40,031 bases of DNA. Source: a virus. The DNA is taken from positions 1-40,031 of IMG/VR virus record IMGVR_UViG_3300037540_000292; one strand, 5' to 3'. This document shows positions 632 through 20,095 of this stretch, in pieces. A program made the translations under genes and the position numbers. The notes below the pieces were generated by a model, which saw only the letters and a program-made list of their open reading frames with translations, ran no database searches and was not told where the DNA came from. How positions within the stretch are numbered: position 1 is the stretch's first letter; each line of letters opens with the position of its first letter.

Positions 632-635
632 AACA

Positions 636-1019
636 ATGAAAATCATATCATTATTTTTTTTGACAGTTGCTTTGGTAAGTATAATTTATTTGGTATTTTC
701 AAAAAAAGAAAAGCCTATGCCCCTTGATTGTATGTCCATTGGTGGCGACAATTATAAACTGGTTCATTATGAAAGCGTTACTCTCGCACCCGGTAGCTGT
801 GGTAGTTTTAACTATCCGATACCAATGCATATTTTGATAAATCCAAATCCCAAAGTATACGAGATTTTTGTAAACAAGGTGAAAATTCTTGATGTATTAA
901 ATTCTTATCGTACGGCGCAAGTCATTTTTTACGAAATGCGGGATGACAAAATTGAAATTTATAATATCAATCCCGGCGATAAAATTGACGTTAAAATTTA
1001 CGTGAAAAAAAGTGGTTGA
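636..1019 (+). CDS. Membrane-anchored or secreted hypothetical protein
   Basis: 127-aa ORF with an AAGGAG RBS and an N-terminal hydrophobic helix (IISLFFLTVALVSIIYLVF). Confidence 0.8.
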   Translation: MKIISLFFLTVALVSIIYLVFSKKEKPMPLDCMSIGGDNYKLVHYESVTLAPGSCGSFNYPIPMHILINPNPKVYEIFVNKVKILDVLNSYRTAQVIFYEMRDDKIEIYNINPGDKIDVKIYVKKSG

Positions 1020-1170
1020 CGCTGCTCTTTTAATTTGGTAATGTTATTTACAATCTTTTTAATTTCTCTGCACATTCTTCACCCCTTGCTTCCATCTTTT
1101 CCGACGAGGAAGGATTTGAAAAAAATCCAGCAAGGAGTTAGTAAAGACTTTGAAATTGTAAGGCTAAAAA

Positions 1171-1353
1171 ATGAATACAAAACCCAAACCTGAAAAAACG
1201 ATTTTTTTTATTGCCAAAATTAACAGGCACTTCATGAGAGAAAAGGAAATCGTTTTCGCCACAAGCGGATGGTTTGGGTCTTGGATCTCTGGAGTGCCTA
1301 TTTTGTTTGAAGGTAAAAAGGGAAAGGAGATGAATGTTGCATTTCCGATATAA
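1171..1353 (+). CDS. Hypothetical small protein (uncertain)
   Basis: 60-aa ORF in an otherwise gene-poor 540-bp stretch, with a weak AAGG RBS. No motif recognised. Confidence 0.3.
   Translation: MNTKPKPEKTIFFIAKINRHFMREKEIVFATSGWFGSWISGVPILFEGKKGKEMNVAFPI
1280..1292. repeat. Distal copy of the 18-bp iteron-like motif (cttggatctctgg)
   Basis: 13/13 match to the start of the second tandem unit at 1489..1506. Confidence 0.5.
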
Positions 1354-1531
1354 AAAAGCGTGGAAAATTGCTTTAGATAAAACACCAGATAACATTAAAA
1401 GCGGAATTAAGAAATTGAAAAATTACGACGCTAAAGTGTTTTACGAAATAACTGGCTCAACTTGGCAACGCTTGGGTCTTTGGCGAGGCTTGGATCTCTG
1501 GCAAGGCTCGGGTCTCTGGCAAGGCTTGTAA
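1334..1531 (+). CDS. Hypothetical small protein (uncertain). The C-terminus is encoded by the tandem repeats (GLWRGLDLWQGSGLWQGL).
   Basis: 65-aa ORF. The RBS spacing is poor, and the region may be non-coding origin or operator DNA instead. Confidence 0.3.
   Translation: MLHFRYKKAWKIALDKTPDNIKSGIKKLKNYDAKVFYEITGSTWQRLGLWRGLDLWQGSGLWQGL
1471..1528. repeat. 18-bp tandem direct repeats, 3.2 copies (iteron-like)
   Basis: The units are cttgggtctttggcgagg, cttggatctctggcaagg and ctcgggtctctggcaagg, followed by cttg. An A-rich tract follows, then the recombination module. Confidence 0.9.
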
Positions 1532-1557
1532 AATCTAAAAAAAAAGGAGAATGAATT

Positions 1558-2313
1558 ATGAGTGAACAAATTCTTGCAGTTCGTGGTGAAGAATCAGAAT
1601 CAGAGTTATTAAACTTGGAGCAAAACATTGATGTAATTATTCGGCAGGCTGACAAAAGAGTTGAGACGTTAAAAAAAGTATTAGGCATAGCAGTTAAAAG
1701 ATTATCGCATTACGACATATTAGACCAAAATGGAAAGCCTTATATACAATCTTCTGCTTGCGAAAAACTAATGCCGATTTTTGGGGTATGTCTAAAAAAG
1801 GCAGATTATGAAAAAAAAGTAGATAGTGATGACGCTGGAGTTTATTACATTTATATTTATCAAGGGACTTTCTCATGGGCCGGTGGCAGTATAGTTGCGG
1901 TAGGAAATTGCACTTCACGTGATAAATTTTTTGCTTGGGATAATATGACAAAAACATATAAACCATTATCACAAGTTGACGAGGCGAGCATTATGAAAGC
2001 TGCATATAGCAATATGCTAATGAACGGTGTCACTCGCTTGCTCGGTTTGAAAAATCTTATGTGGGAACAGTTAGAAGAATTTGGTTTTAAGAGAGATAAA
2101 GTTACTACTGTAAAATATGCCAATGGTGGTTTAGGCGGCGGGTTAATAAGTGAGGCACAAGGCAAAAGACTTTTTGCCATCCTTTCAAAAAGTATGAAAA
2201 CACCCGAAGACTTAAAAGCCCACCTAAAAGAAAAATACAATATAGAACACTCAAAAGAAATTAAAAAAGTTGACTACGAAGAAATATGCAATTGGGTGGA
2301 AGGTAAAATCTAA
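1558..2313 (+). CDS. Hypothetical protein, possible single-strand annealing protein (Rad52/Sak/ERF-like); tentative
   Basis: 251-aa ORF with a strong AAGGAG RBS, sitting upstream of a RecB/Cas4-type exonuclease. The patterns KPYIQSSACEKLMPIFGV and ASIMKAAYSNMLMNGVTRLLGL resemble SSAP cores, judged by eye only. Confidence 0.5.
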   Translation: MSEQILAVRGEESESELLNLEQNIDVIIRQADKRVETLKKVLGIAVKRLSHYDILDQNGKPYIQSSACEKLMPIFGVCLKKADYEKKVDSDDAGVYYIYIYQGTFSWAGGSIVAVGNCTSRDKFFAWDNMTKTYKPLSQVDEASIMKAAYSNMLMNGVTRLLGLKNLMWEQLEEFGFKRDKVTTVKYANGGLGGGLISEAQGKRLFAILSKSMKTPEDLKAHLKEKYNIEHSKEIKKVDYEEICNWVEGKI

Positions 2314-2327
2314 AAATAGGAGATATT

Positions 2328-3092
2328 ATGGAGAAAAATTTGCAAGTTATTGTTCAGGAAAGTGGTTTAGAAACTTCAAAAGCAAAATTTATCCTTGAGA
2401 ATTTTCAGGATTATTTTTCTATTGCCGAAGATTGGGAAAAGAAGGCAAAAGCAATAATGGTTACAGATGCAAAACAAGTTGCTGAAATGAAAATGGCTCG
2501 TGAGGGACGGTTATTTTTGAAGGAAAAAAGAGTTGCCATTGAGAAATCAAGGAAAAAACTTAAAGAACAGTCGTTAAGGGAAAGTAAAGCGATAGATGGG
2601 ATAGCAAACATTCTTAAAGCAGTTATTGAGCCGATCGAAAAATATCTTGACGAGCAGGAACATTTCGTTGAAAACAAGGAAAAAGCAGAAGAAGAGGCAA
2701 GACGTTTAGAGATAGAAAAACGCATTGAAGAGGAAAGAATTGCTAAAGAAAAGGCAGAGGCAGAAGAACGGAATAAAATAAAACTTGAAAACGAAAGACT
2801 AAAAAAAGAAGCAGAAGAAAGAGAACGCAGGGCATTAGAAGAAAGAAAAAAGTTAGAAGAAGAAAATAGAAAGCGTCTTGAAGAAGAACGGAAAAAAGCA
2901 GAGGATGAACGGCAAAAGATAGAACTTGAAAACAAAAAGAAATTAGATGATGAGCGTAAACGTCTTGAAGAAGAAAACCGAAAAAAATTAGAGGAACAAA
3001 GGCTAAAAGCGGAAAAAGAAAGAAAAGAACTTGAGGAAAAGTTGAAATCTGGAGAAAAAAGAAAATGTCCAAAATGCGGTCATATTTTTTAA
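2328..3092 (+). CDS. K/E-rich coiled-coil protein with a C-terminal CPKCGH zinc-knuckle-like end
   Basis: 254-aa ORF with a GGAG RBS. Residues from about 115 to 245 are low-complexity E/K/R heptad-like sequence. Confidence 0.85.
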   Translation: MEKNLQVIVQESGLETSKAKFILENFQDYFSIAEDWEKKAKAIMVTDAKQVAEMKMAREGRLFLKEKRVAIEKSRKKLKEQSLRESKAIDGIANILKAVIEPIEKYLDEQEHFVENKEKAEEEARRLEIEKRIEEERIAKEKAEAEERNKIKLENERLKKEAEERERRALEERKKLEEENRKRLEEERKKAEDERQKIELENKKKLDDERKRLEEENRKKLEEQRLKAEKERKELEEKLKSGEKRKCPKCGHIF

Positions 3093-3101
3093 GGAATAAA
3101 T

Positions 3102-4073
3102 ATGAGTTACGATTTAACAATAAAACTTGCCGATGAAATAGTGGAAAGGCGAAAGAAAACTTTGCAGGATAAAATCAAGCGTTATCCTGCAAGTAATTTT
3201 AGGGCGTCAGATATTTCCGAATGTGATAAATACATGATTTATAGTATTTTGGACTGGCAAAAGAAAAAATTGCATGATGTAGGACTTCAGGAGATTTTTG
3301 ACGCCGGAAATGAAGAAGAAAAACAGGTGAAGAAAAGACTTGCCGAAGATGGATTTGATGTTGTTTCGCAGCAAAACGACTTTGAAATAAAAGACAGAAA
3401 TCAAAACATTATATGTCGTGGACATATCGACGGAAAAATATCTTACAAAGGCGAATATATTCCGATTGAAATAAAAAGTATGAATGAGAATATATTCCGT
3501 ACCATCAATAGCCTTGAAGATTTCAATAAAAAACCTCACCTACGGAAATACTTACGGCAAATGCAGTTGTATCTTTATGGAAATAATGAAGAGGCTGGTC
3601 TCTTTATTTTGTCTGATTTCAGGAGGCATAAGATTATCCCTGTTATTTTGGACTTTGGAGAATGTGATTTTATCTTAAAACGTCTTGAGAAAATTTGGGA
3701 ATATGTCCAGAAAAAAGAATATCCCCCAAAAATTGAATATAAAAAAGATATTTGTGGCAGATGTTCTTATTCTCACATATGTTTGCCTGACGTTGAAAAT
3801 AAGTCTTCTCAAATGATTGACAATGAAGAATTGGAACAAACGATAGATAAACACGAAGAACTTTATAAAAACTACAAGGAATATAAGTCAATACATGGCC
3901 AATTGAAAGAAACATTTAATAACGTAGAATCTGCTTTTATTGGAAGTAAGTATCAAATAGTGGGTAAAACTATAGTTAAAAAACTTGTCAATACAAAATC
4001 AATGCCCGACGATGTAAAGAAAAAATATACCGAAGAAAAATCAGAATATAGATTTCATATAGAAACACTTTGA
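3102..4073 (+). CDS. PD-(D/E)XK exonuclease, RecB/Cas4-like, with a Cys cluster
   Basis: Motifs seen: GHIDG, IPIEIKS (D...ExK), QMQLY, an N-terminal Cys (SECDKY) and a C-terminal CGRCSYSHIC (C-x2-C-x5-C) typical of Cas4/AddB-type Fe-S nucleases. Confidence 0.8.
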   Translation: MSYDLTIKLADEIVERRKKTLQDKIKRYPASNFRASDISECDKYMIYSILDWQKKKLHDVGLQEIFDAGNEEEKQVKKRLAEDGFDVVSQQNDFEIKDRNQNIICRGHIDGKISYKGEYIPIEIKSMNENIFRTINSLEDFNKKPHLRKYLRQMQLYLYGNNEEAGLFILSDFRRHKIIPVILDFGECDFILKRLEKIWEYVQKKEYPPKIEYKKDICGRCSYSHICLPDVENKSSQMIDNEELEQTIDKHEELYKNYKEYKSIHGQLKETFNNVESAFIGSKYQIVGKTIVKKLVNTKSMPDDVKKKYTEEKSEYRFHIETL

Positions 4074-4083
4074 TTTTTGAAAT

Positions 4084-4152
4084 GGTGGCAGTGGCGTTCT
4101 GGCGAAAACGTACTTAACGTGAGTTTAGCAGGTTCAAATCCTGCCTGCCACC
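4084..4152 (+). ncRNA. Non-canonical tRNA-like element (acceptor stem plus T arm intact, only one further arm possible)
   Basis: A 7-bp acceptor helix pairs 4085..4091 with 4145..4151, and an extra G4084:C4152 pair is possible. The T arm is GCAGG-TTCAAAT-CCTGC (4128..4144) and U8 is present. At 68 nt the element is too short for both a D arm and an anticodon arm. Confidence 0.35.
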
Positions 4153-4169
4153 AATTTCTTGAAAGAAAA

Positions 4170-4325
4170 ATGAATACGAAATCTTATGTTTGTAAAAATT
4201 GCGATAAAACGTTTACGGCTTTTGGCACAACTAAAACGTGTCCATACTGCAAATCGGAGAATATCGTTAAGTATACTGAAGGTATATTCAACATTGAAGA
4301 TTTTATAAACGAGGTGACGAAATGA
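4170..4325 (+). CDS. Mini zinc-ribbon protein (CKNC...CPYC), paralog of 37907..38062
   Basis: The 51-aa product starts at the internal ATG of track ORF 4077..4325, whose upstream part is the tRNA-like element. It shares Y-x-CK-x-C-x-K-x-F-x-AF...CP-x-CKSE with the 37907 ORF. Confidence 0.65.
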   Translation: MNTKSYVCKNCDKTFTAFGTTKTCPYCKSENIVKYTEGIFNIEDFINEVTK

Positions 4326-4489
4326 GCATGAATCCATCTTGTGCGGGAATTGAAGAAAAAGACGTATTTTATTGCTCCGAATGTGATAATGTATTACCAA
4401 TTGAAGAACGGTCGGATAATTTTCAAGATGGAAATTTCATTTGCAAAAAGTGTGATGAAGAAAAAACTTTTAAGGGGGTAGTAAAATGA
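4322..4489 (+). CDS. Mini zinc-ribbon protein (CSEC...CKKC), 55 aa
   Basis: ATGA overlaps occur at both ends (4322 and 4486), which suggests translational coupling. It is too short for the ORF track. Confidence 0.55.
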   Translation: MSMNPSCAGIEEKDVFYCSECDNVLPIEERSDNFQDGNFICKKCDEEKTFKGVVK

Positions 4490-4962
4490 AATATCACTTC
4501 GGTCCTGTTCACCCACCGAGAAGGCGTCGACGTTTAGAAGATCCTATTCAGATAGCAGTTGCTAACTATTTAAGAGTGAAATATCCACAAATAAAATCAA
4601 CTATTGCCCCGCAAGGAATTAAATTTTCCGACAACAAGTTAAAAAATATTATCATATCTAAAAAAATGAAAGATATGGGCTACGAAAAAGGCACACCCGA
4701 CTTAATGATTTTCAAAAGATTTTTATCAAAAGAAGTAATAATAGTATATTCTGGATTATTTATTGAAATAAAATCAAATGAATATGGAAAAAACAAAGGC
4801 AGTCTAACAAAAGAACAAAAAGATTTTATCAACTATTTACGTCAAGAGGGATACTATGCCGATGTTTGCTATGGGGCACATGAAGGATACGATCTGATTG
4901 ACTGCTATATGTCATTTGATAGCGAAAAAATTATGAGTAGAAAACTTAACTATAAAGGATGA
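4486..4962 (+). CDS. VRR-NUC domain nuclease
   Basis: GTPDLMIF...FIEIKS...LTKEQKDFINYLRQEGY matches the VRR-NUC PD-(D/E)XK signature. Confidence 0.75.
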   Translation: MKYHFGPVHPPRRRRRLEDPIQIAVANYLRVKYPQIKSTIAPQGIKFSDNKLKNIIISKKMKDMGYEKGTPDLMIFKRFLSKEVIIVYSGLFIEIKSNEYGKNKGSLTKEQKDFINYLRQEGYYADVCYGAHEGYDLIDCYMSFDSEKIMSRKLNYKG

Positions 4963-5225
4963 AACAAATGACATTTTCACAATTTTTTTATGAGTTTCTT
5001 GAGAAAACACTACATTTCAAATGCAGTCATTTTCTTAAAACCCACATTGAATTTTTTGATTGTATCCCATTAAATGACGATAAATTACGAGTTAATTTTT
5101 CTTGGAGGCTAAAAAATAAGGACGGAACTGACGTAACGCTTGAAAATCAATCAATAGAAACAAAACAAGCAATTAAAATAATTTTTGGAGCTGAAAAGGA
5201 GCTTTTTAATGAAATTTTAGAATAG
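4959..5225 (+). CDS. Hypothetical protein
   Basis: 88-aa ORF with an ATGA overlap onto the upstream gene. Confidence 0.75.
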   Translation: MKQMTFSQFFYEFLEKTLHFKCSHFLKTHIEFFDCIPLNDDKLRVNFSWRLKNKDGTDVTLENQSIETKQAIKIIFGAEKELFNEILE

Positions 5226-5233
5226 GAGAATTT

Positions 5234-5617
5234 ATGAGAGAGATTTTGTTTAGAGGGAAAAGAGTTGATGATAGAAAATGGGTTTATGGTTACTATTTTT
5301 TTGATGAAAAATCTGGAATGCACTTTATAAAACCATCGGAAAAATTATTGCCAAGTTATGAACCCATTTTGATTGACTCTGAAGCAATCGGGCAATATAC
5401 TGGACGTGAAGACAAGAATGGAAATAAGATTTTTGATGGTGATATAATGATTTTTGAGAGTGATATTTTGAAAAATACTACGTATGAAGAAAAAATACAA
5501 TATGTCTATTGGGACGACGATGAAGACAAATGGGAAGGTTTATTGAATGCGAGCCATCATTGCGAAATAATCGGCAACAAAACTGACAATCCTGAACTTA
5601 TGGAAAAAATAAAATAA
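5234..5617 (+). CDS. YopX-family phage protein
   Basis: MREILFRGKR...KWVYGYY...IGQYTGREDKNGNKIFDGDI is the typical YopX pattern. Confidence 0.85.
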   Translation: MREILFRGKRVDDRKWVYGYYFFDEKSGMHFIKPSEKLLPSYEPILIDSEAIGQYTGREDKNGNKIFDGDIMIFESDILKNTTYEEKIQYVYWDDDEDKWEGLLNASHHCEIIGNKTDNPELMEKIK

Positions 5618-5627
5618 AGGGGAACGT

Positions 5628-6476
5628 ATGGCAGAATACTTTAGCCACGATTACGGTTCAAGAAATGATCCCAAACTGATAAAATTGCAGATGGACATGG
5701 GACATGAAGGCAAAGGAATCTTTTGGGATTTGGTAGAGATACTTTACGAACAGGGGGGGTACATAAAAACTGAAGACTTAAAAACTGTAGCCTTTAGCCT
5801 AAAAGTAGACCTTGAAAAAGTTGAAAAAGTGATAAAAAATTACAAATTGTTTGAAAAAAATGATGAAAAAGTGTATTCAAAAGCCGTTTTATTGCGATTA
5901 AAAAAAAGAAACGAAATAAACAACAAAAGAAAAAATGCTGCTAAAAAAAGACATATTCTTAAGACGGTAAATACCACTTCTGCAAATGCAGAGCAAATGC
6001 AGAGCAAATGCAGAGCAAATGACATGCAAAAGGGGGGAGTAGTAAAGAGTAGTAAAGGAAAGAGTAGTAAAGGAAAGAGTAGTAAAGAAAAGAAAGAAAG
6101 TACTACAACTACATTAGTTTTGGACAAGCCAAAACCGGTTCACGTTCAGTTTGTTGATGGTTGGAAAGAGCGATATAGAGAAAAAACAAAACTTGACTAC
6201 AGGGATGGTAGTGCTGCTTATGTAAATGCAAGTCGTATGATTAAAAAGTTTGGCATTGAGCAGGTTTGTCTAAAAGGGAATATCCTTGCTGATTTTTGCG
6301 AAGGCAGGTCGGTGTGGTTTACGAAAGATGGTTGGGCGTCTTTTACGATTGAAAAGTTAATAAGCCGATGGAATGAACTTTTGCCAAAAGAAAACGAGAA
6401 AATAAACAGAGAGGAATACTGGCTAAAAAGGATTTTAGAAAATGACAAGGTTAGTCAAAGTCTATCCGAAAAGTGA
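5628..6476 (+). CDS. DUF4373 / Lin1244-like N-terminal domain protein (putative replication initiation or organiser protein)
   Basis: The N-terminus YFSHDYGSRNDPKLIKLQMDMGHEGKGIFWDLVEILYEQGGY resembles the Lin1244/Lin1753 domain. The central region carries DNA repeats. Confidence 0.7.
   Translation: MAEYFSHDYGSRNDPKLIKLQMDMGHEGKGIFWDLVEILYEQGGYIKTEDLKTVAFSLKVDLEKVEKVIKNYKLFEKNDEKVYSKAVLLRLKKRNEINNKRKNAAKKRHILKTVNTTSANAEQMQSKCRANDMQKGGVVKSSKGKSSKGKSSKEKKESTTTTLVLDKPKPVHVQFVDGWKERYREKTKLDYRDGSAAYVNASRMIKKFGIEQVCLKGNILADFCEGRSVWFTKDGWASFTIEKLISRWNELLPKENEKINREEYWLKRILENDKVSQSLSEK
5982..6021. repeat. 11-bp tandem repeat, about 3.7 copies (cagagcaaatg)
   Basis: Exact units at 5989..5999, 6000..6010 and 6011..6021, preceded by a partial unit. 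The period is not a multiple of 3. Confidence 0.9.
6038..6087. repeat. Four copies of AGTAGTAAAG at 10/15/15-bp spacing
   Basis: Copies at 6038, 6048, 6063 and 6078, followed by an A-rich tract. The repeats encode SSKGKSSKGKSSKEK. Confidence 0.85.
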
Positions 6477-6858
6477 AGAAGCGTTGCTGCATGTAGAACT
6501 TGAAAAATTGTTTATATTTCAAGGGTGCCGTGGGAGTGGAATAAAGTTTTTTATTGAAACTTTTGCAAGAGAAATTTTGACGTGGGGTTACGAAATGACG
6601 GATATTTTGTTGGGTGTAAAACGTCTTTTTGACAGGGATATTGGTTCGGTCAAGTTGCATAGTATCAAGCAGTCAATAGCAGATGTTGTGATTAGCAAGC
6701 AGCCCCAACAGTCAGAAGATTACAGAAATTGGAAAAGAGAACCTATGCCGGAAAAAGCAAAAGAGTTGATAAACTTGATGAAAATTAAACGTTTGAAGCA
6801 AGAAAAAGTAAAGATAGAAAGGGCAAACTACGTGAAAACCAAAAAGGAGAGAGTATGA
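6442..6858 (+). CDS. Hypothetical protein
   Basis: 138-aa ORF that overlaps the upstream gene by 35 nt and has an AAAAGGA RBS. Confidence 0.7.
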   Translation: MTRLVKVYPKSEEALLHVELEKLFIFQGCRGSGIKFFIETFAREILTWGYEMTDILLGVKRLFDRDIGSVKLHSIKQSIADVVISKQPQQSEDYRNWKREPMPEKAKELINLMKIKRLKQEKVKIERANYVKTKKERV

Positions 6859-7103
6859 ACAAATTCAATAAACAGAGAGAAGTTTTGGGAATGAATTTAT
6901 TTGAAAAAGTTTTAATTTCATCATTTAAAATTCAAAAAGAAAAAGAAGAAATTTTGATTTGCTTAGAAGATATGTTTTATCAATTTGCTTGTAGAAAAAA
7001 CGGTAAATTTTTCACTGGTGGACTATCTTCACTGGAGTATTGTTTGAAAATTCTAAAAAAATTCGGGAGAATAAATAATGAACAAATTCAAGGCAATAAA
7101 TGA
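6855..7103 (+). CDS. Hypothetical protein
   Basis: 82-aa ORF with an ATGA overlap and a GGAGAG RBS. Confidence 0.7.
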   Translation: MNKFNKQREVLGMNLFEKVLISSFKIQKEKEEILICLEDMFYQFACRKNGKFFTGGLSSLEYCLKILKKFGRINNEQIQGNK

Positions 7104-7218
7104 GGTTAAAAAAGAGATGAAAAACTGGCGGAATAACAAAGAAACTAAAGATTTGAATTTTTTGGAATTGCGGGATTACTACACGGAAAAAATCAAGGAG
7201 AAAATTAACAATGGCTAA
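7078..7218 (+). CDS. Hypothetical small protein, 46 aa (uncertain)
   Basis: It fills the 7104..7210 gap and overlaps both neighbours. No motif recognised. Confidence 0.3.
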   Translation: MNKFKAINEVKKEMKNWRNNKETKDLNFLELRDYYTEKIKEKINNG

Positions 7219-7450
7219 AAGAAAAGTTTACAAAGAAGAAAAAGTTTATGTCCATCTGGATAATGGTGATTTTAATGACGAAACTTGTTTGTGTGAAATT
7301 GAAGGTGTGGTAAGTTTTGAAATGTTTAGTGATAGAAATTTTATGTTTTTAACCAAAAATGCAATTGACGGAGATAAATATTTGGACATACGAAATTTTA
7401 TTGAAAAGAGGTTAAAAAATAGAAAAGAGAATTTACAAAAAAATTATTAA
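7211..7450 (+). CDS. Hypothetical protein
   Basis: 79-aa ORF with an AAGGAG RBS. It ends just after an A7 tract (7437..7443). Confidence 0.75.
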   Translation: MAKRKVYKEEKVYVHLDNGDFNDETCLCEIEGVVSFEMFSDRNFMFLTKNAIDGDKYLDIRNFIEKRLKNRKENLQKNY

Positions 7451-7493
7451 ATGTTGTTGGGAATGTCCCGCCCACGCATTTCATCCGATCAAA

Positions 7494-7580
7494 ATGTGCG
7501 ACGAAACGCGGCGGAAGTTTGAAGGTATTAAAGGAAATTTTCCAAATTTCTGTCCGCTGGAAAAAAAGGAAAGAAAATGA
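7494..7580 (+). CDS. Possible 28-aa Cys-containing peptide (uncertain; see findings)
   Basis: ATG 7494 lies in the frame that stays open from 7416, and the stop overlaps the MTase start (ATGA at 7577). Upstream in the same frame the sequence reads KCCWECPAHAFHPIK, with no ATG. Confidence 0.25.
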   Translation: MCDETRRKFEGIKGNFPNFCPLEKKERK

Positions 7581-8275
7581 AATTTCTTTCGCTTTTTGCT
7601 GGCATAGGCGGTTTTGATTTGGGCTTTGAACGTGCTGGTATGACATGTGTTGGGCAAGTTGAAAATAACGAATTTTGCTTAAAGGTTTTAGAAAAACATT
7701 GGCCGGATATTAAAAAAATAAAGGATATAAAAGATGTCAAAGGCGATGAGTTCGGAACAGTTGACTTTATTTGCGGGGGATTCCCTTGCCAGCCTTTCAG
7801 TTGTGCCGGGAAGCGTCAAGGCAAAAAAGATGACCGTTACTTCTGGAAAGAAATGTTCCGCATTATTGAAGTCGCAAAGCCCACTTGGGTGCTTGGTGAG
7901 AATGTGCCTGGAATCGTCAATTTGGCACTCGACGATGTGTATTCTGACCTGGAAAATGCGGGTTACGAAGTCCAACCGATTATTATTCCGGCTTGTGCTA
8001 TCGGCGCTCCGCACAGACGAGATCGGGTCTGGATTATTGCCTACTCCTCAATCAACCGATTATCTTATAAAGAACACAAGCAAAAGTTGGAAGAAAAAAG
8101 GAAAAACAAATTTTTCTCTTGCCAATCCATCAATAATTGGTGGAAAATTGAACCCTCTATGGATAGAGTGGTTAATGGGATTCCCGGCAGGATGGACAGA
8201 CTTAAAGCGTTAGGCAATGCTGTTGTGCCGCAGATAGCCGAAATTTTAGGAAAATATATAATGAAAAATGTTTGA
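7577..8275 (+). CDS. DNA (cytosine-5)-methyltransferase, compact form
   Basis: Motifs seen: FAGIGGFDLG (I), GGFPCQPFS (IV), GENVPG (VI), GAPHRRDRVWIIA (VIII) and LGNAVVPQ (X). The variable region is very short. Confidence 0.92.
   Translation: MKFLSLFAGIGGFDLGFERAGMTCVGQVENNEFCLKVLEKHWPDIKKIKDIKDVKGDEFGTVDFICGGFPCQPFSCAGKRQGKKDDRYFWKEMFRIIEVAKPTWVLGENVPGIVNLALDDVYSDLENAGYEVQPIIIPACAIGAPHRRDRVWIIAYSSINRLSYKEHKQKLEEKRKNKFFSCQSINNWWKIEPSMDRVVNGIPGRMDRLKALGNAVVPQIAEILGKYIMKNV
7734..8213 (+). CDS. Candidate overlapping gene nested in the +1 frame of the C5-MTase gene (159 codons)
   Basis: AAGGA lies 8 nt upstream of the ATG. The translation looks like a real protein, with LLPTPQSTD and a C-terminal GKLNPLWIEWLMGFPAGWTDL. 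No experimental support. Confidence 0.35.
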   Translation: MSKAMSSEQLTLFAGDSLASLSVVPGSVKAKKMTVTSGKKCSALLKSQSPLGCLVRMCLESSIWHSTMCILTWKMRVTKSNRLLFRLVLSALRTDEIGSGLLPTPQSTDYLIKNTSKSWKKKGKTNFSLANPSIIGGKLNPLWIEWLMGFPAGWTDLKR

Positions 8276-8432
8276 AAAATGCGAACTTATCAACAGGCAA
8301 TGTGGATATTGTGGAAAACATGGTGAAAAATACTACTGCGGACTTGCAAAACCCGAAAAGAAAAATAAGTTTACAAACAAAATCAAGGAGATGAAGAAAT
8401 GTCCGATGCAAGCAAGAAGGACATTTGATTGA
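8268..8432 (+). CDS. Small Cys-rich protein (54 aa) between the two MTase genes
   Basis: MFEKCELINRQCGYCGKHGEKYYCG.... The start overlaps the end of the Dcm gene and the stop overlaps the next ATG (TGATG). Confidence 0.45.
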   Translation: MFEKCELINRQCGYCGKHGEKYYCGLAKPEKKNKFTNKIKEMKKCPMQARRTFD

Positions 8433-9394
8433 TGGAAAAGAATGTAGAGAATTGCCAATTGGGATTAAATAGATTCATCTGCGGAGACGCATTGCAAATA
8501 TTAAAAACCTTTCCGAAGGAAAGTATTGATTGTATTGTTACTTCCCCGCCTTACTGGAGTTTGAGAAATTACGGAGTTGATGGGCAATTAGGACTTGAAA
8601 AAGATTTTAACGAATATATATCAAAACTTTGTGATGTTTTTGACGAGATTAAACGAATTATTAGAAAGACTGGCACAGCTTGGGTAAATTTGGGCGATTC
8701 TTATAGTGGAAGTTCAAACAATAGAACGGACAAAAAATTATATAAAAGTGGATTTGATTATAAAAAAAATCAATTACATTCTATAAAAACTTTTTTACCC
8801 AAAAAATGTCTTTGTCAAATACCTTCAAGATTTGCTATTGAGATGACAAGTAGAGGCTGGATTTTGAGAAATGAAATTATATGGCAAAAACCGAACGCTA
8901 TGCCATGCAGCGCTATTGATAGATTTGGAGTTGATTTTGAAAAGATTTTTTTCTTCACTAAAAATAAAAAAGCATATCACGAAAGGCAATTTACCGAATT
9001 AAAGGAAACATCAAGGAAAAGAGCACTTGGTAATATTTTTTCAAAAAAAACTGACAAGGGCATTCATGGTGGAATGACTTTAGAAAGTCAGAGAGAGGCG
9101 TTTAGAAAAATGCTTTCCCACGATTGTAAAGGCGCTGGTATGCGTTGTGTTTGGACAATTCCGACAAAAGGTTTTAGCGGATCTCATTTTGCCGTATTCC
9201 CGGAGAAATTGCCAGAAATTTGTATAAAAGCAGGTTGTCCTGAAGATGGCATAGTTTTAGACCCTTTTTCAGGCGCAGGAACTACTTGTCTCGTAGCAAA
9301 AAAGTTGGGAAGGAATTATATCGGAATTGAGATTAACAAAGACTATATTGAAATGGCAGAAAAAAGGATACATAACATGGCGGGATTAATTTAG
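8432..9394 (+). CDS. Beta-class N4-cytosine or N6-adenine DNA methyltransferase (SPPY type)
   Basis: IVTSPPYW (motif IV) lies N-terminal and VLDPFSGAGTT (motif I) C-terminal. ATG 8432 is preferred over TTG 8429. Confidence 0.9.
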   Translation: MEKNVENCQLGLNRFICGDALQILKTFPKESIDCIVTSPPYWSLRNYGVDGQLGLEKDFNEYISKLCDVFDEIKRIIRKTGTAWVNLGDSYSGSSNNRTDKKLYKSGFDYKKNQLHSIKTFLPKKCLCQIPSRFAIEMTSRGWILRNEIIWQKPNAMPCSAIDRFGVDFEKIFFFTKNKKAYHERQFTELKETSRKRALGNIFSKKTDKGIHGGMTLESQREAFRKMLSHDCKGAGMRCVWTIPTKGFSGSHFAVFPEKLPEICIKAGCPEDGIVLDPFSGAGTTCLVAKKLGRNYIGIEINKDYIEMAEKRIHNMAGLI

Positions 9395-9396
9395 AA

Positions 9397-9540
9397 ATGA
9401 AAATTAACTACTTCATACTGGGACTAATTTTGCTTGACATCTCCGCCTCTATATGCTATTTTATTAAGCAGGACTGGTGGCGTTCGGTTTACTGGTTTTG
9501 TGCTGGTATTTTAAGTTTAAGCACTTTATTTTTTAGATGA
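9397..9540 (+). CDS. Small membrane protein (47 aa, 2 hydrophobic segments)
   Basis: MKINYFILGLILLDISASICYF...WFCAGILSLSTLFF. The stop overlaps the next ATG. Confidence 0.45.
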   Translation: MKINYFILGLILLDISASICYFIKQDWWRSVYWFCAGILSLSTLFFR

Positions 9541-9752
9541 AATATATGAAAATTAACTTGAACGATACGATAAGATTTACCGTCAATGATTACGGAAAAG
9601 AATTACTTTGTAAATATAAATTCCCTGAATCAAAAAATAATCAATATGAAATGCACCTTTGGGAGTTTTGTAAAATCTTTGGTTGTAATTTTTTACATCA
9701 CCAAAATGTTTTTATTGTTGACAATACTTTTGAAATAATTAAATCATATTAA
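9537..9752 (+). CDS. Hypothetical protein
   Basis: 71-aa ORF with an ATGA overlap. Confidence 0.7.
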   Translation: MKYMKINLNDTIRFTVNDYGKELLCKYKFPESKNNQYEMHLWEFCKIFGCNFLHHQNVFIVDNTFEIIKSY

Positions 9753-9761
9753 GGAGATTTT

Positions 9762-10259
9762 ATGAAAAGCATAAGTAACACAGCAGTTCTTTTATTTGTA
9801 TTCTGGTTTTCCTTTTTTGCAGCACTACTTTTCTTTGGATGTGCTACTTCTAAAAAAGTCGTAGAAAAAAACTTACCAAAACCCTCCTCCGAAGACGTTC
9901 AAGTTTCAAAAGCAGAAGAATTAATGGCAAGCACTATGCCAATTAATATTATGCCAGTAGCAGAGGTTTTTTTTAATTTTGATAAATCCAATCTTGGCCC
10001 AGAGGATATTGCCATAATTGATAAGATTTTGACTTTGCCTGAATATAGTAAAATTCGACTTGATGGATACTGCGATGAAAGAGGAACAGAAGAGTATAAC
10101 ATCGGACTCGGGCAAAGGCGAGCGGACTCGGTTAAGGCATATATAAGGTCAATGGTAAAAAACAAATTGATAGAAACAAAAAGTTTCGGAGAGAGTCAGG
10201 CAAGCAGTGATCCTTTAAGGTACGGCTACGATAGAAGGGTTGATATTTATTTGAAATGA
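9762..10259 (+). CDS. OmpA-family peptidoglycan-binding lipoprotein (Pal-like)
   Basis: Signal peptide with lipobox LLFFGC. The OmpA_C pattern is NFDKSNL...RLDGYCDERGTEEYNIGLGQRRADSVKAYI. Confidence 0.88.
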   Translation: MKSISNTAVLLFVFWFSFFAALLFFGCATSKKVVEKNLPKPSSEDVQVSKAEELMASTMPINIMPVAEVFFNFDKSNLGPEDIAIIDKILTLPEYSKIRLDGYCDERGTEEYNIGLGQRRADSVKAYIRSMVKNKLIETKSFGESQASSDPLRYGYDRRVDIYLK

Positions 10260-10408
10260 AAAATAAAATTTGCCCATTTTCAAATACTTTAACATGTCAA
10301 GGGCATAAATTCCGTTATGCTTGGGACAATCTTGTCAAAACGATAGTTGTTGAGCTTGGCATAATTAAATTAATGAAATTGTTTGTAGGTAAAAGTAAGG
10401 AATATTAA
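10256..10408 (+). CDS. Hypothetical small protein (50 aa)
   Basis: ATGA overlap upstream and TAATG overlap downstream. It fills the gap. Confidence 0.4.
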   Translation: MKNKICPFSNTLTCQGHKFRYAWDNLVKTIVVELGIIKLMKLFVGKSKEY

Positions 10409-10986
10409 TGACAATTTGCTGCGCCGTTAAGACTGAAGAAGGTATTTATATGGGCGCCGATAGTTTGGGCACGAATGGTTTTACCGGCAGAGCATTCAAA
10501 GATAGTAAAGTAATAAAGAAGAATGATTTTTTGATTGGTGCTTGCGGTAGTTATAGGCTTATTAACTTACTTAAGTACAAATTTAATCCACCAAAGAAGA
10601 AGGTAGGGCAAGATATATATGATTATATTCATATAGATTTTTGCGATGAATTAATAACAGTATTTAAGAATAACGGACTTTTAGAAACAAACGATAATAT
10701 TAATAAATTAAGACAATCTGAATTTATATTTGCACATGAAAATAGATTATTTACTTTTCAATCCGATTGCTCGGTAATTGAACCTAAACAAGATTACATA
10801 GCATGTGGTAGTGGAGAGTATCATGCCGAGGCAAGTTTGTTTTCAACGCACAATACAAAACTGTCAGGCGAAGAAAGAATAAAAAGGGCGATAGTATGTG
10901 CAAACAATTTTGTTGTGTCAGTAAATGACGATATTGTTATTGAATTTTTGAAAAATGACGAGGATGGTAAAAATGTTAGTTATTGA
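10408..10986 (+). CDS. Ntn-hydrolase, proteasome beta-subunit / HslV-like
   Basis: The N-terminus is MT- (Thr2). GADS occurs near residue 17, a Lys near residue 33 (SKVIKK) and a GSG motif (ACGSGEYHA), placed as in T1 peptidases. Confidence 0.65.
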   Translation: MTICCAVKTEEGIYMGADSLGTNGFTGRAFKDSKVIKKNDFLIGACGSYRLINLLKYKFNPPKKKVGQDIYDYIHIDFCDELITVFKNNGLLETNDNINKLRQSEFIFAHENRLFTFQSDCSVIEPKQDYIACGSGEYHAEASLFSTHNTKLSGEERIKRAIVCANNFVVSVNDDIVIEFLKNDEDGKNVSY

Positions 10987-11022
10987 AGATTGGGAATTTT
11001 TTATTGGATATTAAAAAAATTA

Positions 11023-11448
11023 ATGAAAAAAAGCGGACGTAAACCTAAAGAAAAGCCAGAGGACAAATTAATAGAGGGAACTCGCAAACTTACTCAAGGT
11101 GATGTAGATGAAGTTTACAGACTTGCCTTGAATGGTTTGCCTGAAAAAGATATAGCCGAAGCGATAGGATATGATGAAACCTATTTTAGCGGAGTAATAA
11201 AAATAATTCCAGAAGTTTCAGAAGCTCTAAAAAAAGGACGTCGTGAATTAAAGCGAAGTTTGATAGAAAAAATTATTAAAAGTGGTATAGACTCAAAATT
11301 TTGGACTGCGAATGCATGGCTACTTGAACGAATCTACAAACAAGAATTTGCTCCGTTAAATAAACTTGAACATACAGGAGAAGACGGACATGCCATAAAG
11401 TTTGAGGTTGTGCATGCAAACAATAAACAGAAAAATAGAAGCGACTAA
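11023..11448 (+). CDS. terS: Terminase small subunit (HTH)
   Basis: It lies immediately upstream of TerL and overlaps it. The sequence LPEKDIAEAIGYDETYF is HTH-like and the C-terminal region contains WTANAWLLERIYKQEF. The start is uncertain (TTG 10990 is possible). Confidence 0.65.
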   Translation: MKKSGRKPKEKPEDKLIEGTRKLTQGDVDEVYRLALNGLPEKDIAEAIGYDETYFSGVIKIIPEVSEALKKGRRELKRSLIEKIIKSGIDSKFWTANAWLLERIYKQEFAPLNKLEHTGEDGHAIKFEVVHANNKQKNRSD

Positions 11449-12673
11449 CGTTTATTTTAGAAACAAGGACGCTAAAACAAGAGTAGTTATTAATCGTGGC
11501 GGTTCAGGTAGTTCAAAATCTTATAGCCTTTGTCAAAACTTTATCCTTAACCGACTTCTACAAAGAAAAAATTACAAACTTTTGATATTGCGAAAAACAC
11601 GTGCGAGCCTTTTTGATTCTACTTATGAAATGTTCATTGAAATGTTAAAAGATTATGGCATTTACAACGAAGACGACCATAATAAGACAAGACTTGTTTA
11701 CCGTTTTCCTGAAAACAATAATTACGTCTTATTTTCTGGTCTTGACAAATTAGAAAAAAAGAAATCTACTGAATGGCACGATATTTGGGTAGAAGAAGCG
11801 AACGAGATTGACGTAAAAACGTATAATTTTTTGAAATTGAGATTATATCGTGGAAGTTCAGATATTAAAAGCCAATTATGGTTATCGTTTAATCCTGTTG
11901 AATGTTGGATACAAGACATTGAAAACGATAAAGATGTAACATTAATAAAATCAACGTATAGAGATAACGATTTTATTAATTCCGAAGCAATGGATATTTT
12001 GCAGGGGTTAAAAGGTGTTGACGATACTTACTATTCAATATATGCAAACGGCGAATATGCGATATTAAAAGACATAATTTACAACCTATTTATAAGACTT
12101 GAAAAATGGATTGATGAGCCTGAAAATTTTTTTGATGATGTTATATACGGGCTTGACTTTGGATTTAACAATCAGACGGCATTAGTAGAGATAGGAATTA
12201 AAGACGGAGAATTTTATATTAGAGAATTGCTTTACAAAAGTGGTCTTAACAATTCCGACAGAATAGAATTAGCGAAACAATTAACCCCTGAATTGTTTAA
12301 GAATAAGACTATTTATGCCGATTCTTCGTCTCCTGAATTTATTCAGGAATTTAGAGACGCAGGATTTGATTGTAAACCTGCCGAAAAGGGCAAGGATTCT
12401 GTAAAGTCAGGTATTGATTTATTGCAAAGAAGTAAAATACATTCTCTTGCTTCAAATGTTAATCTTGAGGCGGAACGCAAATCTTACAAGTGGAGAGAAG
12501 TCAACGGAAAGATATTAGATGAACCGGTAAAATTCAAAGACCACTTGCTTGACGCTTTGCGATATGCTATATTTACTTGGAGTTTATCTTTTGGAAAAAA
12601 AGTAGATATAAAAGAAGTGATTAAAGATTTGAATAAGTCAAGGGATATGGTAACGGCAAATCAAATTTGGTAA
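11414..12673 (+). CDS. terL: Terminase large subunit (PBSX-like)
   Basis: Walker A RGGSGSSKS, with size and position as expected. A GAGG RBS lies before ATG 11414. Confidence 0.9.
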   Translation: MQTINRKIEATNVYFRNKDAKTRVVINRGGSGSSKSYSLCQNFILNRLLQRKNYKLLILRKTRASLFDSTYEMFIEMLKDYGIYNEDDHNKTRLVYRFPENNNYVLFSGLDKLEKKKSTEWHDIWVEEANEIDVKTYNFLKLRLYRGSSDIKSQLWLSFNPVECWIQDIENDKDVTLIKSTYRDNDFINSEAMDILQGLKGVDDTYYSIYANGEYAILKDIIYNLFIRLEKWIDEPENFFDDVIYGLDFGFNNQTALVEIGIKDGEFYIRELLYKSGLNNSDRIELAKQLTPELFKNKTIYADSSSPEFIQEFRDAGFDCKPAEKGKDSVKSGIDLLQRSKIHSLASNVNLEAERKSYKWREVNGKILDEPVKFKDHLLDALRYAIFTWSLSFGKKVDIKEVIKDLNKSRDMVTANQIW

Positions 12674-12677
12674 AATA

Positions 12678-14873
12678 ATGATACTTGACCAATACGGAAA
12701 CAATATAAAGATTTTTCAAAAGCAGGAATCAAAACTAATACATACCGAAGAACTTCTATCTTACAAATCGCCTTATAATTCAGATAGTCAATTAGAGCCT
12801 TATAATCCCGACGATATATATCAGCGTAAGGGTGATTTACAGACCTACCGAAAAATGCTTTACGACGATCAAGTTAAAGCAGTAATGTCAATAAAAATCA
12901 ATTCAATTTTAGCAAGTGATTTTTCAATTATTCCTGTCAGTGAAGAAAAACAGGATATTGAGATAAAAGATTTTATTGAGTATTGTTTTAAGCAGGCAAT
13001 GCGTCCAAATTTTTACAAGATTTTGAGGCATATGCTAACGGCCCTTATTTATGGTTATAGTATTAGCGAGAAATTATTTACAAGATTTGATGGTGGAGAG
13101 TATGCTGGCAAGATAGGAGTTAAGACAATAAAAACAAAACCTCCCGATACGTTTGAATTTCATACAGACGATTTTAACAATCTAAAAAATTTAATACAAA
13201 ATGACAATAAGGGGCAATCTTCATACAGCGAAAAAGATTTTCCTTACTTTATTATATTTACCTATGATTCAGACAATTCAAGTTTTGGAAATTATTATGG
13301 AACATCGGATTTACGTGCGGCATATCGCAGCTGGTGGAGTAAAGATATAATCATAAGATTTTTGAATATTTATCTTGAACGATACGGTATGGGGACGATG
13401 GTAGCGAAATATGAAAAAGGAATGAGTGAAAGAGATAAAGACGCTATTGATTTAATGTTAAAGAATTTGCAGGCAAAGACAGGATTTAGAGTCCCTAAAG
13501 ACGTAGAGATTGAAATTTTAGAAGCTAATAAAAATGGAGAGCAAGGCTACATTGCAGCTATTGAAAAACATAATATAATGATAGCCCGCTCCGTGCTTAT
13601 TCCAGATTTGTTAGGTTTTTCTGATAATAAGTCTGGAAGTTATAATTTAGGGGAAAACCAATTTAATCTCTTTATGGTCATGATTGAGAATTTGCGTAAA
13701 GAAATAGAGGAAATAATTAATGACGAAATAATAAAGCAGTTAGTAAACTTTAACTATGCCAATGTTTCAAATTTCCCAAAATTTTCCTTTGAATCAATAC
13801 AGCAAAAAGATAAGCAGAAACTTTATGATACGTTTATTAAGGCAGTAGAAAAAGGCGTTGTATTGCCTACTGAAGACGATGAGCAATTTTTAAGGGAATC
13901 AATTGATTTTCCTAAAAGAGAAAAAGAATCGGTTTTGTTACCGCAAAAACAACAACCTGCTATGCCGTTTGAGAAAAACAAAAAGCCTAAAATTGAAATC
14001 TTTCAACGTGGATTTTACCGTGAATTAACGCCATTTGAAAAACGTGTTGATTTTGTCAAACTTGCTGAAAGCATAGATAAAATTGAAGACGAAGAATCAG
14101 TATCTACTGCAAAAATAATAAAGAAAATAAAAGACGATTTAGTTTCTACTATTATAAGAAAAAAAATAATAGAGAATAGAGATGTTGCTGAAGTAAATGA
14201 TTTATCGCTTAAATTCCTATCTGAATTAAAAATGCACTTTAAGGATATTGAGCGTCAAGTCTTTATGAAAGGCAAAAAGGACGCAAAACAGGAGATAATA
14301 AAGGCAAAACAATTTCAGTTAGATCCTACCATCTTAAACCTTCCGCCAAAAGAAGCGATTAAATATCTTGAAAATAAGGCAGTATGGATGACCGGCGTTG
14401 AAAAAGATTTTGTATTAAATAATGTAAAACCATTGCTTTTGGATGGCATAAAAACTGGAAAATCTACCGCAGACATAATTTTCGCAGTAGAAGAAATGTT
14501 TGAAAATAAATATGCTCTCGAGGATATAATAAGCACGGGAATTTCAAAGGCAAGGCTTGAAACTGTTGTGCGGACTAATTTTTCGGACGCTTATAATCAG
14601 GGTAGACTCGCTACCTTTCAAGATGAGGATATAGCGGAGATAGTGGCCGCCTTACAATACAGTGCAATTTTAGATAATAGAACTTCTGATATTTGCAATT
14701 CTTTAGATGGCAAAATTTTCAAGCAGAACGATCCTTTAATTGCAAAATATACTCCGCCAAATCATTTTAATTGTCGTTCAATTTTTACTGCAATTATACA
14801 AGGCGAATCTTTTAAGGTGAGCAATAGGCAAACAATTGAAAAAGTTCAATTACCTACTGGATTTGGGAAATGA
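12678..14873 (+). CDS. Portal protein fused to a C-terminal MuF / SPP1 gp7-like head morphogenesis domain
   Basis: 731 aa, directly after TerL. The C-terminus VVRTNFSDAYNQG...ILDNRTSDICNSLDGKIF...TPPNHFNCRS is the Phage_Mu_F signature. The N-terminal approximately 450 aa are called portal from position and DUF935-like appearance. Confidence 0.8.
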   Translation: MILDQYGNNIKIFQKQESKLIHTEELLSYKSPYNSDSQLEPYNPDDIYQRKGDLQTYRKMLYDDQVKAVMSIKINSILASDFSIIPVSEEKQDIEIKDFIEYCFKQAMRPNFYKILRHMLTALIYGYSISEKLFTRFDGGEYAGKIGVKTIKTKPPDTFEFHTDDFNNLKNLIQNDNKGQSSYSEKDFPYFIIFTYDSDNSSFGNYYGTSDLRAAYRSWWSKDIIIRFLNIYLERYGMGTMVAKYEKGMSERDKDAIDLMLKNLQAKTGFRVPKDVEIEILEANKNGEQGYIAAIEKHNIMIARSVLIPDLLGFSDNKSGSYNLGENQFNLFMVMIENLRKEIEEIINDEIIKQLVNFNYANVSNFPKFSFESIQQKDKQKLYDTFIKAVEKGVVLPTEDDEQFLRESIDFPKREKESVLLPQKQQPAMPFEKNKKPKIEIFQRGFYRELTPFEKRVDFVKLAESIDKIEDEESVSTAKIIKKIKDDLVSTIIRKKIIENRDVAEVNDLSLKFLSELKMHFKDIERQVFMKGKKDAKQEIIKAKQFQLDPTILNLPPKEAIKYLENKAVWMTGVEKDFVLNNVKPLLLDGIKTGKSTADIIFAVEEMFENKYALEDIISTGISKARLETVVRTNFSDAYNQGRLATFQDEDIAEIVAALQYSAILDNRTSDICNSLDGKIFKQNDPLIAKYTPPNHFNCRSIFTAIIQGESFKVSNRQTIEKVQLPTGFGK

Positions 14874-15028
14874 AGAATAAAATTACTTCGCAAAATATAA
14901 AAGATTATCTTGACAAAATCTTGCAAAAAAAATACTATGGTGGTATAATTATAAAAGTAGAGTATGGCGAAATTAAAAGGATAGTGCAGGAAATAAGTTT
15001 TAAGGACTTAAAAGAATTGTTAAACTAA
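14870..15028 (+). CDS. Hypothetical small protein (52 aa)
   Basis: ATGA overlap with the portal stop, and the ORF is followed by a terminator. Confidence 0.45.
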   Translation: MKNKITSQNIKDYLDKILQKKYYGGIIIKVEYGEIKRIVQEISFKDLKELLN

Positions 15029-15054
15029 ATAAGTAACACGGTATTGAAGCACTC

Positions 15055-15107
15055 AAGCCAGTGTATAAAAAGGCGATAGCCTTTTAATATGCTGGCTTAT
15101 TTTTTTA
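15055..15107 (+). terminator. Rho-independent terminator candidate (two-tier hairpin plus T-run)
   Basis: AAGCCAG (15055..61) pairs with CTGGCTT (15092..98). The inner hairpin is AAAGGC-gata-GCCTTT, and ATTTTTTT follows. Confidence 0.6.
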
Positions 15108-15124
15108 TAAAAGCGAGGTAAAAA

Positions 15125-16426: not shown

Positions 16427-16445
16427 CTAACGGAGGAAAAATAAA

Positions 16446-20094: not shown

Positions 20095-20095
20095 T

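Follow-up and report, generated by a model that had tools for sequence, protein, structure and literature searches.

Two DNA cytosine-5 (C5) methyltransferases are treated as naturally heterodimeric, M.EcoHK31I and M.AquI (PMC2836561, PMC3404938). In M.EcoHK31I of E. coli HK31 (Lee, Kam and Shaw 1995; Fung et al. 2006), as outlined in these two accounts, the β subunit is coded inside the α gene in another frame; α carries motifs I–VIII and X together with a target recognition domain (TRD; predicted), and β carries motif IX. Both chains are required for activity: it was lost when the β start codons were removed silently in α and restored when β was provided in trans, and N-terminal deletions of β progressively weakened the α–β association (PMC2836561, PMC3404938). 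M.AquI (Karreman and de Waard 1990), as outlined in PMC3404938, is divided within the variable region into two polypeptides, which are consecutive subunits, with motifs I–VIII and a part of the variable region in α, and the remaining variable region with motifs IX and X in β. Here, we analyzed a nested gene pair in the viral DNA record IMGVR_UViG_3300037540_000292. The whole analyzed stretch of 40,031 nucleotides (nt; 34% GC) is referred to below as the window. Its C5 methyltransferase gene at 7577..8275 (frame 0, product named α) contains a second open reading frame (ORF) at 7734..8213 (frame +1, product named β).

Judged by its architecture, the window pair is an M.EcoHK31I-type nested-subunit C5 methyltransferase and not a new kind of system: β lies wholly within α in a different frame, and α has motifs I–VIII and X without motif IX. 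Unlike in M.AquI, motif X is on α, and β is nested over ~70% of the α gene. The setting differs from that of M.EcoHK31I, which we take to belong to a restriction–modification system, whereas the pair described here is part of a phage replication and modification module, beside an N4/N6 methylase. M.EcoHK31I has also been presented as an exception, whereas the architecture considered here covers tens of thousands of sequence clusters. The Bacillus phages SPR, phi3T and rho11s encode multispecific C5 methyltransferases with tandem TRDs between motifs VIII and IX. By their description, these enzymes resemble the window pair in being phage-borne and in having a variable number of short modules, and their Thr-Leu-type dipeptide is reminiscent of the (L/W)PTPxA of β, but they are single polypeptides read in one frame.

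Viral overprinted pairs (reviewed in PMC8227390 and PMC3494269) share with the pair the long same-strand +1 overlap and the lower synonymous variation in the older frame. Most overprinted proteins, however, are young, disordered, accessory and narrowly distributed, whereas many bacterial phyla carry this pair, which is ancient and whose products probably form one enzyme. In the literature that we searched (overprinting, nested genes, methyltransferases and the motif strings), no description of the α/β family was found. Neither the scale and depth of the dual-coding conservation nor the location of the recognition modules in the overprinted frame, for which there is a strong indication here, is described there.

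Coding in two frames

The overlap is dual-coding, with hardly any room for doubt, and both of its frames are under purifying selection in very distant relatives. The original prediction had placed a 159-codon +1-frame ORF, with AAGGA 8 nt ahead of its ATG, inside the methyltransferase gene. All coordinates were confirmed in the sequence, as were the quoted motifs (GGFPCQPFS, ENV, PHRRDR and LGNAVVPQ in frame 0; LLPTPQSTD and GKLNPLWIEWLMGFPAGWTDL in frame +1). Both genes are on the + strand, and the offset of β is (7734 − 7577) mod 3 = 1. The α gene encodes 232 residues and is preceded by a Shine–Dalgarno (SD)-like AAGGA at 7566..7570, 6 nt ahead of its ATG. The SD-like AAGGA of β (159 residues, ATG start) is at 7721..7725. 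A +1-frame TAA at 7728..7730 stands one codon upstream of the β ATG, and the +1 stop-to-stop stretch begins at 7731, which rules out entry into β by +1-frame translation from further upstream.

An open stretch of this length is not expected by chance. Among the 27 long + strand genes of the window, alternative-frame stops occur at a frequency of 9.1% per codon (about one stop per 11 codons), from which the probability of 160 open codons is ~2e-7. Of the 1,717 alternative-frame runs, with a mean of 9.6 and a 99th percentile of 49 codons, the 160-codon run of β is the longest. Synonymous shuffling that preserved both the frame-0 protein and the codon usage opened a +1 run of 160 codons or more in one of 5,000 shuffles (P = 2e-4).

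Two sets of relatives were examined. The α-selected set comprised 80 viral contigs fetched with the α query, which together with loci L001 and L002 and the window made 83 loci. The β-selected set comprised 80 loci from bacterial genomes fetched with the β query, from very diverse groups that include Clostridia, Paenibacillus, several proteobacterial classes, Bacteroidetes, Acidobacteria, Verrucomicrobiota, Leptospira and Parcubacteria/Saccharibacteria. All 83 α-selected loci have inside the methylase gene an open +1 ORF of 155–448 codons that matches the β hidden Markov model, and all 80 β-selected loci sit inside an α gene at an offset of exactly +1. The nesting is obligate in both directions (163/163 loci, at least two methylase subfamilies). 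The original prediction stated that proteins with PTP repeats ending in LNPxWxEWLMGFPxGWT recur next to phage C5 methyltransferases; the family does exist, but it is encoded inside the methyltransferase genes and not adjacent to them.

The +1 frame is protected against stops. Synonymous shuffling of α in the 83 loci gave 4.05 expected +1 stops per locus (mean probability of an open frame, P(open), 0.015) and none was observed, whereas the +2 control frame had 14.24 stops against 14.20 expected. Over motifs IV–VIII, 3.72 +1 stops were expected (mean P(open) 0.029), yet every locus is open. The gene for the single-chain E. coli Dcm has nine +1 stops across the motif IV–X span, which shows that the methylase motifs do not by themselves leave +1 open. 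Frame 0 was analyzed in the same manner in the α linker (residues 157–188, 8045..8140), which occupies the TRD position of a canonical enzyme. With β fixed, 2.87 frame-0 stops per locus were expected there, and about 8 of 75 loci were expected to be open (mean P(open) 0.11); the frame-0 linker is open in 75 of the 79 loci whose sequence does not run off the contig. Each frame is thus kept open where conservation is confined to the other.

Synonymous variation was assessed in 75 complete α genes with a median pairwise identity of 44%, as the third-position entropy of conserved four-fold-type residues (Mann–Whitney test). It was 1.86 bits in the N-terminal and 1.81 bits in the C-terminal non-overlapping part, and was reduced to 1.36 bits in the motif IV–VIII overlap (p = 2e-4) and to 0.50 bits in the C-terminal overlap (p = 2e-5). 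Motif I (FAGIGG, S-adenosylmethionine binding, 7595..7612), which lies outside the overlap and is invariant or nearly so in alignments A1 and A5, showed 1.7–1.9 bits, as in normal single coding; Val110 of motif VI had 0.93 bits against ~1.85 outside the overlap. Some of the constraints can be traced to single residues. Leu125 of α (0.18 bits) is nearly always (C/T)TG because Trp74 of β (96% conserved) needs it, and Leu89 of α (0.54 bits) is nearly always CTC because Ser38 of β needs it. With homologues for both frames, a +1 frame open in every relative examined and suppressed frame-0 synonymous variation, the first option of the original prediction, a genuine overprinted gene, was borne out by the checks proposed with it.

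The dominant frame changes along the overlap. At motif IV (GGFPCQPFS with the catalytic Cys71, 7775..7801, invariant; GDSLASLS in the β reading) α dominates, and β residues vary freely at α third codon positions. Motif VI (ENV, 7898..7906), with E108, N109 and V110 invariant, is read as (V)RMC(L) in β, and motif VIII (PHRRDR, 8009..8026), with H146, R148 and R150 invariant, as LRTDEI. The linker is unconserved in frame 0, with a consensus frequency of 0.23 and ~1.7 bits at all three codon positions. The β 'PTP' module LLPTPQSTDYLIKNTSKSWKKKGKTNFSLANPSI (β residues 101–135, 8034..8138), a putative target-recognition module, shows the T and P of its PTP motif conserved in 87–98% and a +1 third-position entropy of 1.6–1.9 bits, as in ordinary single coding in the +1 frame. 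The most conserved stretch of β is its motif-IX-like C-terminus GGKLNPLWIEWLMGFPAGWTDL (residues 136–157, 8139..8204; WWKIEPSMDRVVNGIPGRMDR in the α reading), with consensus frequencies mostly of 0.73–1.0 and of 0.56 for F150. Over the last 22 β codons, β is more conserved than α, and the most variable position is α position 1, that is β position 3.

The β stop codon of the window, a TAG at 8211..8213, lies within the first two codons of α motif X (LGNAVVPQ, 8210..8233; G213 and N214 invariant). The same arrangement, with the TAG within the Leu-Gly codons (CTA GGN) of LGN and four residues past GWT, was found in 30 of 55 loci; in 13 more, β reads on for eight residues (...ASETQ*). Since the TAG lies in the LGN codons, β ends exactly at the start of the last essential motif of α.

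This change of dominance recurs in the comparison with the closest relative, L168 (α ~75% and β 70% identical). Outside the overlap, the two sequences have 9/12/32 differences at α codon positions 1/2/3; the linker has 12/8/6 and the C-terminal overlap 6/4/2. When window positions 1..25000 were compared by megablast with 50,697 GenBank phage records, the sole match was a 59-nt stretch, 8175..8233 (86% identity, Lacticaseibacillus phage R9.2), which corresponds to the motif-IX-like region of β and the start of α motif X. It is the most nucleotide-conserved piece of the first 25 kb because it is dual-coded.

The proposed subunits and competing explanations

Judged by family score and catalytic motifs, α is unmistakably a C5 cytosine methyltransferase. 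It matches Pfam PF00145 (DNA_methylase) with E = 2.4e-52 (178.8 bits against a cut-off of 22), TIGR00675 with E = 5e-43 (148 bits against a cut-off of 100.65) and, over its full length, phrog_363 with E = 5.8e-78. FAGIGG, GFPCQPFS, ENV, HRRDR and LGNAVVPQ are all present in α and are invariant or near-invariant across 75–85 relatives. The PF00145 match covers α residues 1–176 on profile positions 1–182 of 324, and the α-family profile (alignment A5) covers only residues 6–182 of M.HhaI. In the AlphaFold2 (AF2) model of α, the mean predicted local distance difference test score (pLDDT) is 82 and the predicted template modelling score (pTM) 0.77. Residues 1–157 exceed 90, residues 158–210 are below ~55 (the linker ~46–55), and a helix at 205–231, containing motif X, is of high confidence from about residue 211. 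The top Foldseek matches of the model were M.HaeIII and M.HhaI (E ~1e-15), with ~165 of ~325 residues aligned. The AF2 model, Foldseek and the M.HhaI profile alignments indicate that α is the large domain only (motifs I–VIII and X). A small domain (TRD and motif IX) was not found in the α polypeptide by Pfam, M.HhaI alignment, Foldseek or pLDDT, and no motif-IX-like LxPxExxxLxGFP occurs in frame 0 between motifs VIII and X. The 32-residue linker at the small-domain position is probably disordered, as modelled.

β matches phrog_1008 (E = 7e-29) and has 482 homologues among database proteins, down to E = 1e-44, at ~50% identity and ~95% coverage. The exhaustive profile search retrieved 38,044 representative clusters (50% identity) at E <= 1e-3 and 2,934 at E <= 1e-30. 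The number of PTP modules differs among the relatives: two in L168, many in P0131 and P0219, and up to about eight. The second module of L168 faces only 27 extra junk residues in α. In L083 (1528..2586), motifs I and IV of α are separated by a junk-like insertion, the +1 reading of which is an extra N-terminal β module, LLPTPQSSDHITKKTSKSWKEKGATNFTLSNP, nearly identical to window β residues 101–133; since the module of the window reappears elsewhere in L083, PTP modules relocate in the β frame. Read in its own frame, β is a modular protein in which PTP modules have been gained, lost and relocated, and α has nothing but junk insertions in these places.

Several further features of the β family were noted. 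Some long members (e.g., P0198, 330 residues) open like α (MKVLDLFSGI...) and then continue in the β frame; they may be frameshift errors or natural fusions. Other long β proteins start a few bases past the α ATG and have an extra PTP module upstream of motif IV. A low-complexity stretch, VQVERERERE (REREREREP in the α reading), is present in β of L002 (3001..3729), P0001, P0004 and P0009, and the alternating-purine repeat that encodes it is open in both frames.

Taken together, α and β probably form one heterodimeric C5 methyltransferase, a reading that draws on the M.EcoHK31I precedent and on a weak motif similarity. Both overlapping genes of 7577..8275 are most likely translated, β from its own ATG at 7734 with its own SD sequence. 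The α chain would give a complete large catalytic domain (motif I, the Cys of PCQ, ENV, (H)RxR and the motif X helix), and β would supply the missing small domain in trans. We infer that β binds α, carries the specificity and is needed for activity. Its N-terminal ~100 residues, overprinted on α motifs IV–VIII, may dock on α; the role of the M.EcoHK31I β N-terminus in association would explain the selection on the overprinted N-terminal half here. The PTP module would be the target-recognition unit, and the C-terminal LNPxWxEWLMGFPxGWT helix would correspond to motif IX. Because all that α has at this position is an unconserved linker of 32 residues, a TRD could only lie in β.

Experimental and comparative studies of M.HaeIII suggested that the TRDs of C5 methylases diversify via paired frame-shifting indels (PMC3812077). 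The nested pair could have originated in a related manner, by paired indels flanking the small domain and subsequent acquisition of an upstream start by β in the new frame. The out-of-frame part probably descends from an ancestral in-frame small domain and did not arise de novo.

Several observations weigh against this reading, both in its dual-coding part and in its assignment of β. The continuity of α is not absolute, since frame 0 is interrupted in about 9 of roughly 160 loci: L014 (94..1000) and L037 (553..1420) each have one frame-0 linker stop with β intact and motif X continuing in frame 0, in L063 (652..1560) a 1-nt indel within the PTP region displaces the two downstream parts jointly, and frame 0 is split in about five genome loci. 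These could be decayed copies or sequencing errors, and L014, L037 and L063 could also be tolerated split α chains. The conservation of β over motifs IV and VI is partly a by-product of the invariant residues of α, the synonymous suppression in the L168 pair is a trend only (28% vs 41%, Fisher p = 0.13), and the loci share ancestry, so that the per-locus probabilities are not fully independent. As to the assignment, β has no Pfam or NCBIfam match, and a search of the PDB sequences with the β profile gave no match even at E <= 10. AF2 on β alone (120-sequence alignment) produced no confident fold (pLDDT 62, pTM 0.28), the confident parts being a β-hairpin at residues 70–90 and a helix at 141–148 (pLDDT ~87), and Foldseek returned no meaningful match to this model. 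The likeness to M.EcoHK31I is one of published architecture, in which the predicted TRD is placed in α, whereas the α described here has no room for one.

The original prediction also held that ExLMGFP of β resembles the motif preceding motif X in Dcm enzymes. The sole hhalign match of β on E. coli Dcm does set KLNPLWIEWLMGFP onto Dcm motif IX, RLTPRECARLMGFE, but the match is weak (E = 0.41 with a single sequence and 0.067 with a profile, hhalign probability <1%) and adds to the points above. With the Dcm C-terminal profile (E = 0.067), the alignment extends so that LxPTPxAxDxKG falls onto the Dcm TRD segment RTLSARYYKDG. The assignment of motif IX and a TRD to β by this profile match is suggestive only.

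The alternative that survives best takes β as real and selected but not as a methyltransferase subunit: it could act in regulation, DNA binding or anti-defence, or share nothing with α but its expression. The lack of a significant match of β to any characterized domain, the statistically weak motif IX/TRD similarity and the unconfident fold would all fit such a protein. An unrelated function would, however, be expected to occur sometimes alone, whereas β is nested in 163 of 163 loci and in at least two methylase subfamilies. Moreover, α is deprived of the small domain on which any active single-chain C5 methylase depends, motif IX is exactly where the one weak hhalign match falls, and the M.EcoHK31I experiments demonstrate that a nested β can be an obligatory subunit. 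We consider this alternative unlikely.

The second alternative is a single chain made via two programmed frameshifts, with frame 0 read to motif VIII, +1 through the PTP module and motif IX, and frame 0 again for motif X. Such a composite has the canonical order VIII, TRD, IX, X, frame-shifting indels in C5 methylase TRDs were bypassed in the laboratory (PMC3812077), and the loci with an interrupted frame 0, among them L014 and L037 with a linker stop and +1 open, are its best argument. Nevertheless, about 95 +1 codons before motif VIII and the frame-0 linker would be unneeded in such a chain, and both are kept open in spite of the low P(open) of 0.029 and 0.11. The initiation signals of β also speak for a separate protein: in 79 of 83 loci the start picked was an ATG with which the open +1 stretch begins at its 5' end, 46 of 83 have an SD-like motif (often AAGGAG) ahead of it, and a +1 stop frequently stands only a few codons upstream. 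A slippery X_XXY_YYZ heptamer between GWT and the β stop was found in one of 55 loci and no slippery site is conserved there, the first PTP motif would be skipped because it lies over the α strand coming after motif VIII, and the composite sequences (frame 0, +1, frame 0) gained nothing in motif IX–X recognition against Pfam. A single trans-frame chain was therefore rejected as very improbable, and the evidence read from the sequences supports two separate proteins. The original prediction had offered a frameshift isoform that supplies target recognition; the supply of recognition is probably right, in trans, and the isoform is not.

The weakest alternative, that the +1 ORF is a non-functional by-product of conserved methylase motifs and codon bias, can appeal to the β residues dictated by α over motifs IV and VI and to the arbitrary choice of either frame by gene callers, but it is scarcely credible and was effectively refuted by stop avoidance (+1 almost never left open by synonymous shuffles, +2 as expected, nine +1 stops in E. 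coli dcm), by the suppressed synonymous sites of α, by the conservation and codon periodicity of +1 in the linker and motif-IX-like region, and by the β modules that duplicate and move in their own frame.

Genomic context, spread and significance of the nested pair

The window belongs to a phage, encoding a large terminase and a Mu-type portal, and its long ORFs are on the + strand throughout. Directly downstream of the C5 methylase lies an N4/N6 DNA methylase gene (8429..9394; PF01555, E = 6e-49). Between the two methylases, a Cys-rich ORF of 54 residues (CGYCG...C...CP) is located at 8268..8432, its ATG overlapping the α stop. The three genes look like a phage methylation module, and no endonuclease match was obtained among the scanned flanking ORFs. 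The phage may use the nested enzyme, together with the downstream N4/N6 methylase, to protect its own DNA from host restriction.

A second same-strand +1 nested ORF (27746..28078, 110 residues, TTG start, 121-codon open run) is present inside 27670..28434, a tail-fibre-like gene without a Pfam match just upstream of a 1,436-residue ORF. As noted in the original prediction, its translation is L/I-rich and junk-like. The evidence for it is much weaker: its synonymous-shuffle P of 0.007 is uncorrected and not significant once corrected for ~54 gene-frames.

Gene callers accept one of two overlapping ORFs, and databases therefore hold α in some records and β in others. In L001 and L002, β is annotated and α was dropped by the gene caller, though each β lies inside a full-length methylase ORF. 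The E. coli PT62 prophage (L166, NZ_CP090448.1) has two different C5 methylase genes, 1..926 and 2898..3657. In each, the +1 frame holds a nested ORF that has (W/L)PTP modules and, at its end, LNPxxxxW(L/F)MGxP; one of these ORFs (2902..3657) spans the whole α gene. RefSeq/PGAP (Prokaryotic Genome Annotation Pipeline) annotates the frame-0 genes alone and neither nested ORF. A blastn search of E. coli genomes with a gammaproteobacterial homologue recovered prophage genes nested in this manner and did not recover M.EcoHK31I itself. In GenBank, the inner ORF of Paenibacillus larvae phage Lily is labelled 'g62 internal gene', and in phage Tadhana both ORFs are named 'DNA-cytosine methyltransferase'. 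Comparative papers on P. larvae phages list two 'DNA-cytosine methyltransferase' products with no remark on the overlap. Cultured phages with the pair include Lily (LILY_62 and LILY_63) and Lactobacillus phage Lc-Nu (ORF40).

The layout described in 1995 for M.EcoHK31I is thus very widespread and mostly unannotated, with β standing as tens of thousands of 'hypothetical proteins' without a Pfam or NCBIfam model and missed by PGAP. The consequences are practical as well. Silent recoding or codon optimization of α would destroy β and probably give an inactive or non-specific enzyme, and phage methylation specificity predicted from α alone would be wrong if the specificity sits in β. A split methylase with modular recognition cassettes is also a type of scaffold in use for targeted methylation (PMC2836561). 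For studies of overlapping genes, the pair provides a deeply conserved natural test case of two proteins sharing 150–450 codons with frame dominance varying by segment, in which the transfer of an entire protein domain into another frame, and not de novo invention, appears to have taken place.

Finally, we put forward tentatively, at somewhat less than an even chance, that the nested-subunit design is the standard architecture of a very large and ancient C5 methyltransferase group of phages and prophages (38,000 clusters or more, at least two α subfamilies, many bacterial phyla), with the whole small domain, including the specificity 'PTP' cassettes, in the +1 frame. If so, these would be among the longest (150–450 codons) and most widespread same-strand dual-coding regions in prokaryotes, and the placement of the TRD in M.EcoHK31I α might need revisiting. 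The specificity of such enzymes would then evolve by gain, loss and relocation of β cassettes, whereas α would only have to stay open across a junk linker.

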